A DNA stretch of 64,000 nt, from IMG/VR virus record IMGVR_UViG_3300044675_007236. The stretch is one strand, 5' to 3'. The notes under the pieces were generated by a model, which did not search any database, was not told where the DNA came from, and was given only the letters and a program-made list of their open reading frames with translations. Positions 32,849-38,187 of the stretch are shown in pieces. Positions within the stretch are counted from its first letter, which is position 1. The number at the start of each line of letters is the position of its first letter. Source of the DNA: a virus. Taxonomy: Duplodnaviria; Caudoviricetes. Made by a program: the position numbers and the translations under genes.

Positions 32849-33429
32849 GTGATTACCCGTTTACTATTTTTATAGAAGCAAATAGCAACAAAAATGCCAT
32901 AATACCTAAACCGATTTGGCCTGAAAGCATCAGATACAAACCAGCACACAGTAAACCAAGAAACCAAACTGCAATCGCGTTATCCATTGTTATCATCCTC
33001 TGAAATTGTCGGAGGAGACCAACTATTTAAGCTAACTCTATCAGAGGGAGGTGCTCCTTCGCCTGCTATTAACTCTTCCAGAGGTTTGCCGCTAGGCACC
33101 TCGGTTTGATTGACTAGCAACTGCGGTGGAGAAAATGAGGACGACGGCCAATTCAGCGGTCGCAATTGTTTTCTCCGGCTAAAGGCGAAAGAACTTCTGG
33201 TCGGCATTGTGGCCTCCCCTCTGTGGGTTACTCTTTGTTATCTTGTCCAAAAACCATATTATGGACGGCGGCGACGGTCATTAAAAGACCGGCACCTATC
33301 AAAATTACGGACTTGGCGGCAAACGATGCCACCCCGATTATTGCTTTGGCTGTGAGAGACAGCAAGTCAAACACAGTATCACTTAGCTTAAAAATGACAT
33401 CCTCCTACGATTTGATTAAAAATGCCAGA

Positions 33430-36400
33430 ATGACCTCTAGCGAGGTCATGGCAGAAGAACAAGCACACGATCCTTACGTTATCAGCGAAACTAAGCTGGT
33501 AAACGTAGCTCGGCAGATGGGCTACAAGCCGTCTGCATCGACAAGCCTTGTGGAACGCAGATTACACTTGGCGGATTTTATGCTGAAATCGTCGGGATAC
33601 CCGACGCTTCAGCCACTTCTTCCGCTACTGCTTTCCATCAGGGGCAAGCCCTATCACTTACATGATCACTTTCCGTTTGCTCCTTTCTTTAGAACGAGAA
33701 TGGCACGGACGACGCTGCTAAAAACGGGCCGTCAAGTGAGTAAAAGTACTTCACTGGCAGCTCAAGGTGTTTTGTTCTCAAACTGCATACCGTACTTCAG
33801 TACGCTTTTTCTTACGCCTTTGTTTGAAATGATCCGGCGGTTTTCTCAAAACTACGTCGCAGAATTCATTACAACAAGCCCTGTAGGCCGACTGTTCACT
33901 GACGAAACTACCGTGAACAACGTACTACAACGTTCGTTTAAGAATAGATCTAAGATGATCTTTTCTTTTGCCTACCTGGACGCCGAGAGAACTCGAGGTA
34001 TCTCTGCCGACAAAAACTGCCTCGTCGGAAATACCATGTTGGAGCTTTCTGACGGTAACTTTGTCGCCATAAAAAATGCTAAACCAGGCATGGCTGTACT
34101 TTCTACGGATAAGAATGGTACAATCAGTACCGATGTAATAACTGAGGTGCTGTATCACGGCGTGCAGCCTGTTTTTGAGGTTAAGTTTTCCGGCGGTGAA
34201 GTTGTACGGTGTACTGCAGATGAGCGATTTAGAACAGCCAGCACAAAACAGTGGAAATATTTGGCAGAGCTTGTACCAGAACTGCTCGAATTCCAAAACG
34301 GACAAGCGAAAGCGGAACCAGGACAAACCTTTAAGCTACCCGCAGAAACAAATGCTACTAGGTTGCTTACTAGGCGATTCCGGAATAGCTCAAGCTTCAA
34401 AAACCTCAAATTACCGAATATATTTCAGACACGGACTGAAACAAAAACAGTACTGTCAGGACAAAGCCGACACTTTGGCCGAGTTTGTTTCAACCCAACC
34501 GAAAGAAGTGCTCAACCGAGGCTACGGAAAAAAGTCGGTAATATTTGCTACTGTTTCAAGTCCTGCGTTTCTGGAAATAGCTCGAACTGTCACCGTCGAA
34601 GGCAAAAAAACGGTAACTACAACTTGGGCAAATCAACTGGATTGGGCGGCAATAGCTTATTGGTACATGGACGACGGAAGCTGCGGTGCTCGAAGAAGCA
34701 ATTGTGTTTTTCATACACAAGGGTTTTCAAAAGCCGAGTGCGAAATACTTTCAAGCCGATTAAAAGAGCTGGGCATCTACAACAAGGTGACGCCTGTAAA
34801 AAACAAAAATCAAGCCAGGCCGTATTACGTGCTTTGTCTAACTGCCGAGAGTTCTCGAAAATTAGCGCTAAATATTGCACCTTGGGTGCATCCGTCTATG
34901 CGTTACAAAATCCCAAGACAAAAAGAAACAGTAATCTGTTCAATGTGTGGATCGATTTTTTCGGGTCGAAAAGACCAGCTGGAGGCAAAAGAAGCTATTT
35001 GCAAAAAAGAAAATTGCAAAAAACTTCGACACAGAAAGTTGAATTTGGAATATCGCGAAAGAAAGAGAGCTGCGAAAGTTCGGTTATAACTTGTGTAACC
35101 TATGTCGGCTTACGTCCAACTTGGGATATAAACACAGCGAAGTATCATTCATTTTTTGCTAACGGTGTAAATTGCCATAACTGTATAGACGAGATCCAGG
35201 ACATGGATATCTCGTTTCTACCTGTTATTCACGAGACTATTTCTGCCTCACGCTCTTGGGGAATCAAGCAATATGCTGGAACTCCCAAGACACTTGACAA
35301 CACAATCGAGCGGCTTTGGATAGATAGTTCCATGGCCGAGTGGATTATCAAATGCCCTCACGGAGGCTGCGGTCACTGGAATATTCCTTCACTAGATCAC
35401 GATCTTCTCAAAATGATCGGACCGGTTCACGACGGCATTAGCGACACGTGTCCAGGTGTTATTTGTGCTAAGTGTGCAAAACCAATCAATCCAAGACCAC
35501 CCTACCAGGGCGGAACTGGACGGTGGTTGCACCGGCATCCCGATAAGCGTTGGAGCTTTGCTGGCTACCATGTGCCTCAGCTTATCATGCCTATGCACTA
35601 CGCTAGCCGCGAGAAGTGGCAAACGCTAGTCGATAAACGAGATGGCAAAGGTAACACACCTATCCACGTTTTTTACAACGAAGTATGCGGCGAGTCGTGG
35701 GACTCAGGTAGCAAGCTTGTAACCATTACAGATCTCAAACGTGCTGCGTGCCTGCCGTGGAAAAATACCATGGAGACAGCTCGAAATAACATCGACGGCT
35801 ATTTGTACCGCTTTGTGGCCGTTGACTGGGGTGGAGGTGGCGTTAGCAACGGTAAAAGCGATCTTGCGTTGCAGTCTTACACTTCGATTGCGGTATGCGG
35901 TCTTTGTCCTGATGGTCGCGTGGACGTTATTTACGGGTACCGAAGTATGACACCGCACGAGCACGAACGCGAAGCCGGTTTGATTTTGAACATCATGGGA
36001 GCTTTCAAGTGTTCTCACGTTGTTCACGATTACACAGGAGCCGGTACAGTGCGAGAAACGCTGCTAGTGCAGGCTAGGCTTCCTCGAGAAAGGATTCTTC
36101 CTGTGGCCTACACTGGGCCTGCCAAGGGTGGTTTGATAGGTTACAAACCTGCAAACCCGAAACACCCTCGAGATCACTATGTAATGGACAGAAATCGAGC
36201 TTTGAATTACTGCTGTCAATTCATCAAAGGTGGGGTTATTAGATTCTTCGAATACGACTACAAAGGATCAGATGATGTCGGTCTTTTGCACGACTTTTTG
36301 AATTTAATCGAAGACAAAGCCGAGTCTGGATCCGGCAGGGACACTTACAAGATTTTGCGAGATCCTGCCGGACCTGATGACTTTGCACAAGCTGTTACCA

Positions 36401-36525
36401 TGGGCTCAATGATGCTGTTCCAAATGGCAGGTAGGTTTCCAGACCTATCAGCCTACAAGGACATAGAGATAAGCGACGATGTGCTACTCTCTACCCAGGG
36501 TATTAAGGACATGGATTGGTACTAG
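33430..36525 (+). CDS. terL: Terminase large subunit (GpA-like) precursor containing an intein
   Basis: LLKTGRQVSKST Walker A, RGISADKN|CIDEIQD Walker B split by the intein, KCPHGGCGHWN Zn site, GYHVPQL, FYNEVCGESW, VAVDWG nuclease motif. Start uncertain (33394-33448). Confidence 0.88.
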   Translation: MTSSEVMAEEQAHDPYVISETKLVNVARQMGYKPSASTSLVERRLHLADFMLKSSGYPTLQPLLPLLLSIRGKPYHLHDHFPFAPFFRTRMARTTLLKTGRQVSKSTSLAAQGVLFSNCIPYFSTLFLTPLFEMIRRFSQNYVAEFITTSPVGRLFTDETTVNNVLQRSFKNRSKMIFSFAYLDAERTRGISADKNCLVGNTMLELSDGNFVAIKNAKPGMAVLSTDKNGTISTDVITEVLYHGVQPVFEVKFSGGEVVRCTADERFRTASTKQWKYLAELVPELLEFQNGQAKAEPGQTFKLPAETNATRLLTRRFRNSSSFKNLKLPNIFQTRTETKTVLSGQSRHFGRVCFNPTERSAQPRLRKKVGNICYCFKSCVSGNSSNCHRRRQKNGNYNLGKSTGLGGNSLLVHGRRKLRCSKKQLCFSYTRVFKSRVRNTFKPIKRAGHLQQGDACKKQKSSQAVLRALSNCREFSKISAKYCTLGASVYALQNPKTKRNSNLFNVWIDFFGSKRPAGGKRSYLQKRKLQKTSTQKVEFGISRKKESCESSVITCVTYVGLRPTWDINTAKYHSFFANGVNCHNCIDEIQDMDISFLPVIHETISASRSWGIKQYAGTPKTLDNTIERLWIDSSMAEWIIKCPHGGCGHWNIPSLDHDLLKMIGPVHDGISDTCPGVICAKCAKPINPRPPYQGGTGRWLHRHPDKRWSFAGYHVPQLIMPMHYASREKWQTLVDKRDGKGNTPIHVFYNEVCGESWDSGSKLVTITDLKRAACLPWKNTMETARNNIDGYLYRFVAVDWGGGGVSNGKSDLALQSYTSIAVCGLCPDGRVDVIYGYRSMTPHEHEREAGLILNIMGAFKCSHVVHDYTGAGTVRETLLVQARLPRERILPVAYTGPAKGGLIGYKPANPKHPRDHYVMDRNRALNYCCQFIKGGVIRFFEYDYKGSDDVGLLHDFLNLIEDKAESGSGRDTYKILRDPAGPDDFAQAVTMGSMMLFQMAGRFPDLSAYKDIEISDDVLLSTQGIKDMDWY
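34018..35181 (+). mobile_element. Intein (388 aa) in terminase, inserted immediately before Walker B
   Basis: Block A CLVGNT.., block B RCTADERF (canonical His replaced by Glu), block F/G TWDINTAKYHSFFANGVNCHN followed by +1 Cys. Confidence 0.92.
34220..35089 (+). CDS. LAGLIDADG homing endonuclease encoded in the +1 frame inside the intein
   Basis: MLLGCLLGDS and AIAYWYMDDG motifs, FHTQGFSKAE, C-terminal CSMCG Zn ribbon; own stop at 35087-35089. Start uncertain. Confidence 0.88.
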   Translation: MSDLEQPAQNSGNIWQSLYQNCSNSKTDKRKRNQDKPLSYPQKQMLLGCLLGDSGIAQASKTSNYRIYFRHGLKQKQYCQDKADTLAEFVSTQPKEVLNRGYGKKSVIFATVSSPAFLEIARTVTVEGKKTVTTTWANQLDWAAIAYWYMDDGSCGARRSNCVFHTQGFSKAECEILSSRLKELGIYNKVTPVKNKNQARPYYVLCLTAESSRKLALNIAPWVHPSMRYKIPRQKETVICSMCGSIFSGRKDQLEAKEAICKKENCKKLRHRKLNLEYRERKRAAKVRL

Positions 36526-38187
36526 CTTTACGATTTCTCGTTACTCTATTTCAATCCCGTTAGCAGTGACAGTAAGAATCCTACCGTTGGGCAGCAGAAT
36601 TCTATCGTTAGGCTTAGCAACAAGATCAGCGGCTGGCTTTGTTTGCTCCTGCTTGCGTCGGTACCAGATAGCTTCGAGTTGCTCGCCGGTCAACTTTGTC
36701 GATGCAACCCACTTAACACCGTCCCACCACTCGTCGTTGGCTTCTAGAGTCTCGTGCGGATATTTTCCGAGCAGCGTGTAGCCTTTACCCGGCTCAGGCT
36801 TTTTGAGCCACCAGGACTGCGGCTCGTAGACTTGGCATTGAGACCAACACATGCCTCCGTCGCACTTGAAGTGGCCTCGTTCCCATCCAACAAGCATCAG
36901 GTCGTACCCGTCACCGTCGAGGCAGACCCAGTTTTGAGTTTTGTCATCCCTAAATCTAGCCACTTTTCCGTTGTTGGTTCTTACGATCTCCGCAACATCC
37001 ATATCCGTCGCGTCTCTGTAAAACGCTTCAATCTTTGTAGTCATCGTGATAATTCTCCTTATCGGCGATTGCCGAAAATAAATTTGAACTAACGCATACC
37101 GACTTCTTTTCGGCTCGCGCAAGAACGCTCGTAGTCTCGTTTTTCAACACTAGACATTAAACCTAGTTTGTAGCGTAAGCGTTTAGATAAATCTTGCTTG
37201 CAGTATTTACAACCGTACTTAGAACCTATGCGAGCTCTAATGCTAGCAAGAACAGCCATGTACGGTTTTACATCTGGCAATAGACTGTACTTACGCAAAC
37301 AAAAGAAAGCGGCGTCCAAGTGGTTAATAACGCGTATTTGGTGGTAAAATCTAGCACTAGCTTTTTCAGCCTCTAAAGCTAGTTTTATATGTTTAATGAA
37401 CAATTTTTTAGCTTCTTTTAACGCTGTTTGCCGATCCAGCGATGCTTTAAAACTATCAGAATTACTCGAATCAATTTCAAGTTTAGTCAGGTTCACAGAT
37501 ACGCCAATCTCCAGAAAGGTTTTCGATATTACACTCACACCATTCAGCAGTTGCTTTTTCTTCGTTTAAATCAAAAGCTTCGCCGTATTTTTCCCATGCA
37601 ACATCTTCACATGTGCTCGGATCATCAGTTACAGCTACCAGCCGACAAAGTGCTAATCTCTCTGCCAATGCGCGACGACGGCTGCTAGGTACAGTTTCAG
37701 GTACGTATATTTCTACGATACCTTTAAACGAAACGTGCACCTTGATTTGCTCTGAAGGTTTTGGTTCGAACTCAATCAAATCTTCGAATTCAAATGTTCT
37801 TCGTTGAACTGTGGATTCTACGAACGCAGCGATGTATCCGCGTCGCAACGCTTCGACATGCGGTCCGGTTAGGTACCTGGAAAATACCAGCGAGATTGCT
37901 GCCTGGTAAACCATTGCCGGTTCTTGTTGCAGTAAGTCGGCAAGACCCAGCTTTGTGAAAATCTTAATTTCGTTGGTTGAAAAGTTACTCATGCTTTGTA
38001 AGTAATGCAAAAAGCAAGGAAGTAGCATAGAAACACTAACACGGACGCCATGCTGCCGATTGCGACACCCTTTAAAAATTCACCACGGTAAGCGTATAGC
38101 GTGGTGTTACCTATAAAAACACCAAAAGATAAGCCAAAACCGTATAAGTATTCATTCATATTTTTTTCATGTTTTTTCATTAGAGGT

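Follow-up and report, generated by a model that had tools for sequence, protein, structure and literature searches.

Introduction

Among described inteins, that of cyanobacterial dnaX holds a LAGLIDADG endonuclease gene on the same strand and out of frame (Phillips, DeSimone and Gogarten, bioRxiv 10.64898/2026.09.14.751524), an arrangement first noted by Gorbalenya (1998, as cited). Inteins of terL, the gene of the large terminase, are known in actinophages with out-of-frame EndoVII-like, antisense LAGLIDADG or VSR-like nucleases (Gosselin et al., 2025, bioRxiv 10.1101/2025.01.02.630785), and an out-of-frame HNH nuclease has been reported without any intein (PMC11855218). Here we describe a terL intein of an uncultured lake jumbo phage, found in a stretch of 64,000 nucleotides (the window, whose numbering is used unless another locus is named) of a 175-kb IMG/VR virus record (IMGVR_UViG_3300044675_007236; Duplodnaviria, Caudoviricetes) that is 84% complete by CheckV. 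In our reading, to which we give a probability of about 0.85, it is a mobile intein that encloses a separate, I-SceI-like LAGLIDADG_2 endonuclease gene in the +1 frame between its two splicing halves, and the terL frame (the 0 frame) is read straight through that gene. The original prediction for this locus had likewise taken the insert for a real intein with a separate +1-frame LAGLIDADG gene and had called the arrangement rare rather than unprecedented; our results support the former, and the dnaX and actinophage precedents support the latter. We found no description in the literature of terL inteins with a +1-frame endonuclease of the I-SceI type.

A homing endonuclease gene in the +1 frame

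Nearly all long open reading frames (ORFs) in the window lie on the minus strand, and terL lies on the plus strand, within a long ORF (33166-36525) that is free of stops from end to end. Since relatives align from an ATG at 33391, terL is taken as 33391-36525, which corresponds to a precursor of 1044 amino acids (aa) and a protein of 656 aa once the intein is spliced out. The intein frame, 34018-35181, was predicted to stay open for 388 codons, and the translation bears this out, running from Cys1 to His-Asn with a Cys behind it. The parts of the gene are as follows.

33391..36525, plus strand: terL (large terminase) with intein; phrog_675, E 5.3e-36
33391..34017, plus strand: N-extein, ending ...ISADKN, the point from which the intein-less alleles L001-L017 continue
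34018..35181, plus strand: class-1 intein of 388 codons, Cys1 ... His-Asn, with Cys at +1; PF14890 (weak), HINT fold
35182..36525, plus strand: C-extein, beginning CIDEIQDM (Walker B Asp-Glu), 74-89% identical to L001-L014

Inside the intein, on the same strand and shifted by one base against its frame, lies a complete ORF with its own stop codon (coding part 34220-35086, stop TAA 35087-35089). Its features are given below, together with the intein-frame reading of the same DNA; structures were predicted with AlphaFold2 (AF2), whose confidence is expressed as predicted values of the local distance difference test (pLDDT).

34220..35089, plus strand: homing endonuclease gene, +1 frame, 289 aa and TAA, start placed by inference; PF03161 E 5.7e-30, AF2 mean pLDDT 88.8
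34352..34381, plus strand: LAGLIDADG motif 1, MLLGCLLGDS, with acidic Asp53 (sequence and comparison with L028)
34655..34681, plus strand: LAGLIDADG motif 2, AYWYMDDGS, conserved in 16 relatives; the intein frame reads LLVHGRR here (the "shadow motif")
34937..35017, plus strand: Cys4 zinc-ribbon-like tail of the endonuclease, CxxC ... Cx4C; C240, C243, C261 and C266 conserved with L028
34372..35064, plus strand: intein-frame read-through of the endonuclease gene, open and basic (isoelectric point, pI, 11), without a confident fold (pLDDT below 50)

The +1 product matches the Pfam family LAGLIDADG_2 (PF03161) with 104.9 bits, where the cut-off is 25, and also matches phrog_11023. Both helices of a two-motif enzyme are present, LLGCLLGD with Asp53 and AYWYMDDG with Asp151/152; the two are kept in 16 relatives, among which A146, W148, D151, D152 and G153 of the endonuclease are invariant. 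In the model built with these relatives residues 35-289 are above pLDDT 85, and Foldseek finds the fold that was looked for, a pseudo-dimeric alpha-beta-beta-alpha-beta-beta-alpha arrangement of the LAGLIDADG_2 kind, with I-WcaI and I-SceI as the best solved matches (template modelling score, TM, 0.81; E 9e-16). Against the endonuclease domains of PI-SceI and PI-PfuI, which reside in inteins, the TM is only about 0.33. A protein search of the phage collection with the endonuclease returned only distant relatives, in frame or free-standing, and a nucleotide search of that collection with terL gave no matches. Long basic endonuclease tails also occur in L030, L031, L112 and L113, and in L036/L038 (2190-3557) the tail consists of four tandem Cys4 zinc-ribbon-like units within an open frame of 456 aa.

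In the intein frame this DNA encodes a very different product. Residues 119-349 of the intein stay below pLDDT 50 while both splicing parts reach 82-92, and this middle part is rich in Lys, Arg and Ser (Lys plus Arg 22%). Over the overlap the nuclease frame reaches a pLDDT of about 95 and the host frame about 30, and when one and the same stretch is compared between the window and its relative L028 the +1 frame is 51% identical and the intein frame 26%. The suspicion that the middle codons are junk-like in the intein frame was thus well founded.

This junk-like frame is nevertheless kept free of stops. A stop arises in the intein frame when an endonuclease codon ending in T precedes a codon starting with AA, AG or GA. 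None of the 87 endonuclease codons that start in this way is preceded by a T-ending codon, T being the third base in 33% of codons elsewhere (P about 4.8e-16). Synonymous-codon shuffles of the endonuclease gene carry 16.7 intein-frame stops on average, and 0 of 20,000 left the intein frame open; the same test in seven relatives gave 0 of 20,000 in L019, L030, L031, L033, L035 and L038, and 46 of 20,000 in the GC-rich L028. The codon pairs and the shuffles together therefore indicate that the need to keep terL readable constrains third positions in the endonuclease gene. An earlier estimate of 6e-6 for a chance open frame was far too modest, and the accompanying claim that both frames are under selection is supported by the shuffle test and by the conservation of the +1 frame.

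The splicing domain and its insertion point

The two ends of the insert carry the parts of an intein that splice.

34018..34371, plus strand: N-terminal splicing domain, residues 1 to about 118; AF2 pLDDT 82-92 to about residue 90, then falling
35080..35181, plus strand: C-terminal splicing domain with blocks F and G, ...FFANGVNCHN; AF2 pLDDT 80-92

The N-terminal nucleophile is a Cys at 34018-34020, directly behind ...ADKN, and blocks F and G end in His-Asn ahead of the Cys at +1. The match to Pfam Intein_splicing (PF14890) is weak; the N- and C-terminal parts are modelled confidently as a HINT fold by AF2, with the Mtu RecA, Ssp DnaB, Npu DnaB and Npu DnaE mini-inteins as the best Foldseek matches (E about 2e-6). 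The N-terminal domain is 54% identical to that of L028 over residues 1-93, and Asp370 and Asn388 are invariant among the aligned relatives.

The borders are confirmed by empty alleles. In 17 intein-less terL loci from viral metagenomes, with C-exteins 47-89% identical to that of the window, N- and C-extein are joined at the identical codon: ...ADKN (SDRV in L015-L017) is followed by CIDEIQDM, or in two loci by VIDE. The insertion point thus lies four codons ahead of the end of the Walker B Asp-Glu. The two alleles with Val in place of Cys at +1 (ADKN-VIDE; L004:6001-6003 and L011:1707-1709) may be refractory to invasion, because the intein could not splice at Val.

Two insertion points four codons apart are in use among relatives. 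The window, L028 and L111 carry the intein at N|CIDE, and other family members (L110, L113, L030, L031) carry it right behind the Walker B Asp-Glu (DE|CQD). The terL of L013 (4117-7344), 87% identical to that of the window, has no intein at Walker B; at the Walker A site (GRQVSK | ... SHN | STSLAAQG) it holds one of the canonical kind, whose LAGLIDADG domain is in frame. Which intein is present, and at which terL site, therefore differs between related phages. Two inteins are found in each terL of L030 (979-4449) and L112 (501-5180). The downstream one, at Walker B, harbours a +1-frame LAGLIDADG_2 gene in both; the upstream one of L112 has an in-frame LAGLIDADG_3 domain, and that of L030 is truncated where the open frame begins.

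Conservation of the layout in divergent relatives

The relative L028 is a contig of 1265 nt with 64% GC, too divergent for an alignment with the window at the DNA level. Even so, it shares the terL junctions, the block B sequence TADE, a fully open intein frame and a +1-frame endonuclease that is 50% identical. Even the end of the gene is kept in place: in the window the stop TAA lies across the Ile-Thr codons ATA-ACT that open the C-terminal splicing domain, and L028 uses the homologous Ile codon, close before block F, for its endonuclease stop (TAG from ATA-G).

When metagenome contigs were scanned with the endonucleases of the window and L028, 80 loci came back. In the nearest of them (33-39% identity; L019/L032, L030, L031, L033, L034, L035, L036/L038 and L042) the host frame, one base upstream, is open across the endonuclease; the ORFs, which encode terL or, once, a helicase-like gene, are 2.7-4.4 kb long unless the contig ends within them. 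Non-redundant metagenome loci with a host frame open in this way number ten. The host frame open across the nuclease gene, which marks a non-canonical intein, is seen in the window and in its relatives alike. Three further loci (L081-L083) are dnaX inteins of the cyanobacterial type with the endonuclease in the other frame offset.

An exhaustive HMMER search with the 388-residue intein gave 134 cluster representatives. The shadow motif [LIVM][LIVM]V[HY]GR[RW], what AYWYMDDG becomes when the reading starts one base upstream, is found in 25 of them; none has AYWYMDDG itself in frame. Four loci derived from this search were checked on the DNA, and L110, L112 and L113 have an intact +1 endonuclease, whereas that of L111 is interrupted by one TAG. 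In all, 14 or more loci of the clade are verified on the DNA, and its protein clusters number about 25. On a tree of 74 endonucleases the window pairs with L028 (support 97) within a clade of six out-of-frame terL endonucleases (92 in the Shimodaira-Hasegawa-like approximate likelihood ratio test, SH-aLRT), and a large clade of free-standing genes is placed elsewhere.

Glutamate in block B

One element of the splicing domain departs from the usual pattern T-x-x-H.

34213..34224, plus strand: block B, T-A-D-E, with the Thr kept and His replaced by Glu; GAT-GAG holds the +1 ATG (sequence, with relatives aligned)

The block B Thr (Thr66) is invariant in 9 relatives. At the His position Glu occurs in 29 of 129 aligned relatives and Ser in 17; among the loci named here Glu is found in the window, L028, L030, L031, L110 and L113, Ser in L111 and L112, Thr in L033, and His in L019, L035, L038 and L082. 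The recurring form with Glu has the consensus C-T-x-N/D-E-K/R. It had been proposed that GAT-GAG creates the candidate ATG of the endonuclease, and this holds for ATG 34220; the need for an ATG does not explain the Glu. The codons are GAT-GAG in the window and AAT-GAG in L030, both of which make an ATG, and GAC-GAG in L028 (also TADE) and AAC-GAA in L031 (TSNE), which do not. Glu as a by-product of the start codon is rejected on these grounds and by its frequency; being shared by many relatives, including those without an ATG at this place, it is a trait of the family.

A small group of natural inteins without the block B His is known (PMC6333167 and its reference 16). The Tko CDC21-1 group resembles the present case in being of class 1 with Cys1, lacking this His and residing in essential genes, from which a compensating mechanism follows for that group. 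The present family differs in that Glu recurs at the position in many relatives, and a limited literature search found no report of Glu there. Tentatively, the Glu block B could be an uncharacterised class-1 variant, in which a carboxylate instead of the imidazole would activate the N-terminal scissile bond, and which would be widespread in phage terL inteins and enriched in those with out-of-frame I-SceI-type endonucleases; we consider this a minority possibility. In addition, splicing might depend on some condition imposed by the long basic read-through linker, such as the binding of nucleic acid.

Probable expression of the endonuclease

The endonuclease frame is open from 34142, within the N-terminal splicing domain, and no ATG other than 34220 lies 5' of the first LAGLIDADG helix (residue 40 onwards). 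The candidate ATG lies in block B in the window and in L030, a few codons later in L031 and further upstream in L028. In L035 and L038 it comes directly after an in-frame stop, with good Shine-Dalgarno sequences (GGGGGA and GGAGAG) 5-7 nt before it, which therefore favours independent initiation over frameshifting. Our best guess, drawn from the sequences, is that the endonuclease is made by internal initiation, probably at ATG 34220. A scan for sigma-70 promoters gave 6 sites where 4.3 were expected, which is chance level, with none just upstream of 34220, and tells little about this phage. Contigs from RNA libraries (X15, X16) cover 33300-33727 and parts of 34111-34786 and leave out 33744-34076 and 34854-35500, with DNA carry-over a possible source; such contigs give no ranking of expression. 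Terminator-like hairpins number 12 in 33000-36700, compared with 4.1 in shuffled sequences (standard deviation 2.1), and one of them, at 34149-34168, lies just upstream of the region where the endonuclease starts.

Weighing the explanations

Several observations weigh against an active intein with a translated nuclease gene. The block B His, usually essential, is absent; ATG 34220 has no clear Shine-Dalgarno sequence, just GGTG at -12, such a sequence being present in about half of this phage's genes; a start codon conserved across the family was sought and not found, its position differing in L028, L031 and L111; and residues 1-34 of the endonuclease are predicted by AF2 to be disordered. In L111, the closest relative by its intein, a TAG at 1681-1683 replaces the Trp of motif 2 (AYWYMDDG), with the remaining +1 frame and the entire host frame open. 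This endonuclease looks freshly inactivated, and it follows that endonucleases of this lineage can decay. A search of the record (G000) found a single terL copy, and its incompleteness leaves some room for a second terminase elsewhere.

Two explanations would do away with the overlap itself, and we regard both as very improbable. Two compensating indels that shift a normal in-frame endonuclease are the default suspicion for any metagenome-assembled contig, and a check for such errors had been part of the original prediction. At least 14 DNA runs from lakes or fresh water, dated 2016-2024, contain the stretch. A 16.8-kb contig from another lake run (X7) covers 33300-36600 with 4 substitutions and 0 gaps, and no indels are seen either in contigs of a further lake run (X8) or in the JGI contig L029, which has 1 mismatch in 1234 nt. 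The frame layout is moreover shared by 14 or more divergent loci whose GC ranges from 0.34 to 0.64, the endonuclease ends with its own stop codon, and a 0 frame free of stops beyond chance is not what an artefact would produce. A group I intron, removed from RNA, would account for the enzyme, as LAGLIDADG_2 proteins of the I-SceI type are typical of such introns; yet no Rfam family is found at E up to 1 over 33300-36600, and the flanks of the insert encode, in the terL frame, Cys1, the block B Thr, blocks F and G, His-Asn, Cys+1 and a HINT fold. An intron would also have no need of an open 0 frame.

The other explanations concern what becomes of the +1 frame. A programmed frameshift into +1 after block B and back before block F would give an intein-endonuclease fusion, and a single shift an N-extein-endonuclease fusion. 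The endonuclease frame that opens well ahead of ATG 34220, inside the N-terminal splicing domain, and the lack of a strong ribosome-binding site before this codon are in line with a shift. Frameshifting would, however, leave the 0 frame unconstrained, and this frame is stop-free over about 290 codons in every family member; the fusion with the intein requires two precise shifts, the endonuclease frame terminates right before block F, and L035 and L038 have a Shine-Dalgarno sequence and an ATG behind an in-frame stop. No slippery site was noticed, though no systematic search for one was made. We hold this explanation to be unlikely. Slightly less so is that the +1 ORF is an unexpressed relic, its frame still unbroken, and the element effectively a mini-intein with a long linker. 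The nonsense codon of L111 points in this direction, and the RNA-library contigs over 34111-34786 may derive from DNA. The endonuclease is nonetheless intact, with both catalytic Asp motifs, in lineages that are just 33-50% identical, and its frame is twice as conserved as the other frame of the same stretch. Population variants in the overlap are two, and each hits the third base of an endonuclease codon. With 34843 T>C the endonuclease is unaltered and the intein frame has Arg for Cys; with 35014 T>G Asn becomes Lys in the endonuclease tail and Leu becomes Val in the intein frame, so that one of the two is synonymous for the endonuclease. All 6 population variants of the C-extein are synonymous in terL. 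Intein-less and intein-bearing alleles coexist among close relatives (exteins 89% identical), which fits active homing. An intein with a functional, separately encoded endonuclease thus remains the reading that we prefer.

A model for the element and its origin

Under the preferred reading, ribosomes on terL would pass through the endonuclease gene in the 0 frame and make of it a linker of about 230-260 residues, basic and disordered. The two HINT halves, N- and C-terminal, would then fold together and excise the 388-residue intein, leaving the 656-aa terminase. We infer splicing because this is the only terL in the record, because both splicing parts are conserved and because the arrangement has persisted for long. 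The endonuclease would be translated separately, by internal initiation on the terL message or from its own transcript, and would cut intein-less terL alleles of co-infecting relatives, into which the element would be copied.

As for the origin, a free-standing homing endonuclease gene most likely invaded a mini-intein, and the layout would then have been inherited by a clade of phage terL inteins. This scenario is suggested by the I-SceI-type fold, the gene's own stop codon, the free-standing relatives and the split dnaX loci L044 and L065. The word "overprinted", applied to the endonuclease in the original prediction, caught the overlap and fits better in reverse, the endonuclease looking like the invader and the intein-frame read-through the secondary frame. 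The locus thereby favours the view of full inteins in which the splicing domain comes first and the endonuclease gene invades later, and related loci show neighbouring stages in the form of free-standing, split ("fractured"), out-of-frame and decaying genes. It also adds a selection-tested, well-supported case of two-frame coding in a mobile element, and it exposes a blind spot of annotation, where gene callers miss the nested endonuclease ORF and call it only on short fragments. For protein engineering, it offers a natural intein that, judged from its sequence, should tolerate a disordered insert of about 250 residues together with a block B Glu.

Comparison with known systems

The enzyme itself is most similar to I-SceI and I-WcaI (PDB 1r7m and 6x1j), with which it shares the fold (TM 0.81, 25-27% identity, E about 1e-15) and the presence of both motifs on a single chain. 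These two are encoded in mitochondrial group I introns, whereas the enzyme of the window lies within an intein and has a Cys4 tail.

The cyanobacterial dnaX intein has in common with the window a same-strand LAGLIDADG gene in an alternative frame between the splicing halves, an intein-frame middle that is predicted to be disordered, an endonuclease frame under purifying selection and a proposed origin from an invaded mini-intein. It differs in its host gene, bacterial dnaX rather than phage terL, in the frame of the endonuclease relative to the host, +2 rather than +1, and in the place of its endonuclease on the tree, the two being on separate branches. Furthermore, the window has a C-terminal zinc-ribbon tail and a block B Glu, whereas dnaX has N-terminal Cys knuckles and His.

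In the actinophage terL inteins, too, an overlapping ORF of its own encodes the nuclease; a free-standing nuclease gene that invaded is taken as the origin, and the essentiality of terL is the ground on which splicing is inferred. That survey lists LAGLIDADG enzymes only in frame or antisense, however, its same-strand out-of-frame case being EndoVII-like and in frame 3, and its hosts are actinobacteria whereas the window comes from an uncultured lake jumbo phage.

In fractured genes (Dassa et al., 2009, as cited) the intein is split and a free-standing nuclease gene sits between its halves, at the endonuclease insertion point; in the window the host frame is unbroken, terL is one polypeptide and splicing would take place in cis. 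Two dnaX loci among our contigs (L044:1722-4723 and L065:231-4828) are such fractured genes in three ORFs: the first comprises N-extein and N-intein up to a stop, the second is a free-standing LAGLIDADG gene whose product has Cys knuckles at its N-terminus, and the third comprises C-intein and C-extein. The endonucleases of these two loci are the sister group of the out-of-frame dnaX endonuclease of L082. Finally, the out-of-frame HNH nuclease (PMC11855218) resembles the endonuclease of the window as a hidden ORF in a shifted frame, with the host frame open and the start a few bases into the insert; it has no splicing domain and its insert remains in the host protein, whereas the terL insert described here carries both halves of a HINT domain.

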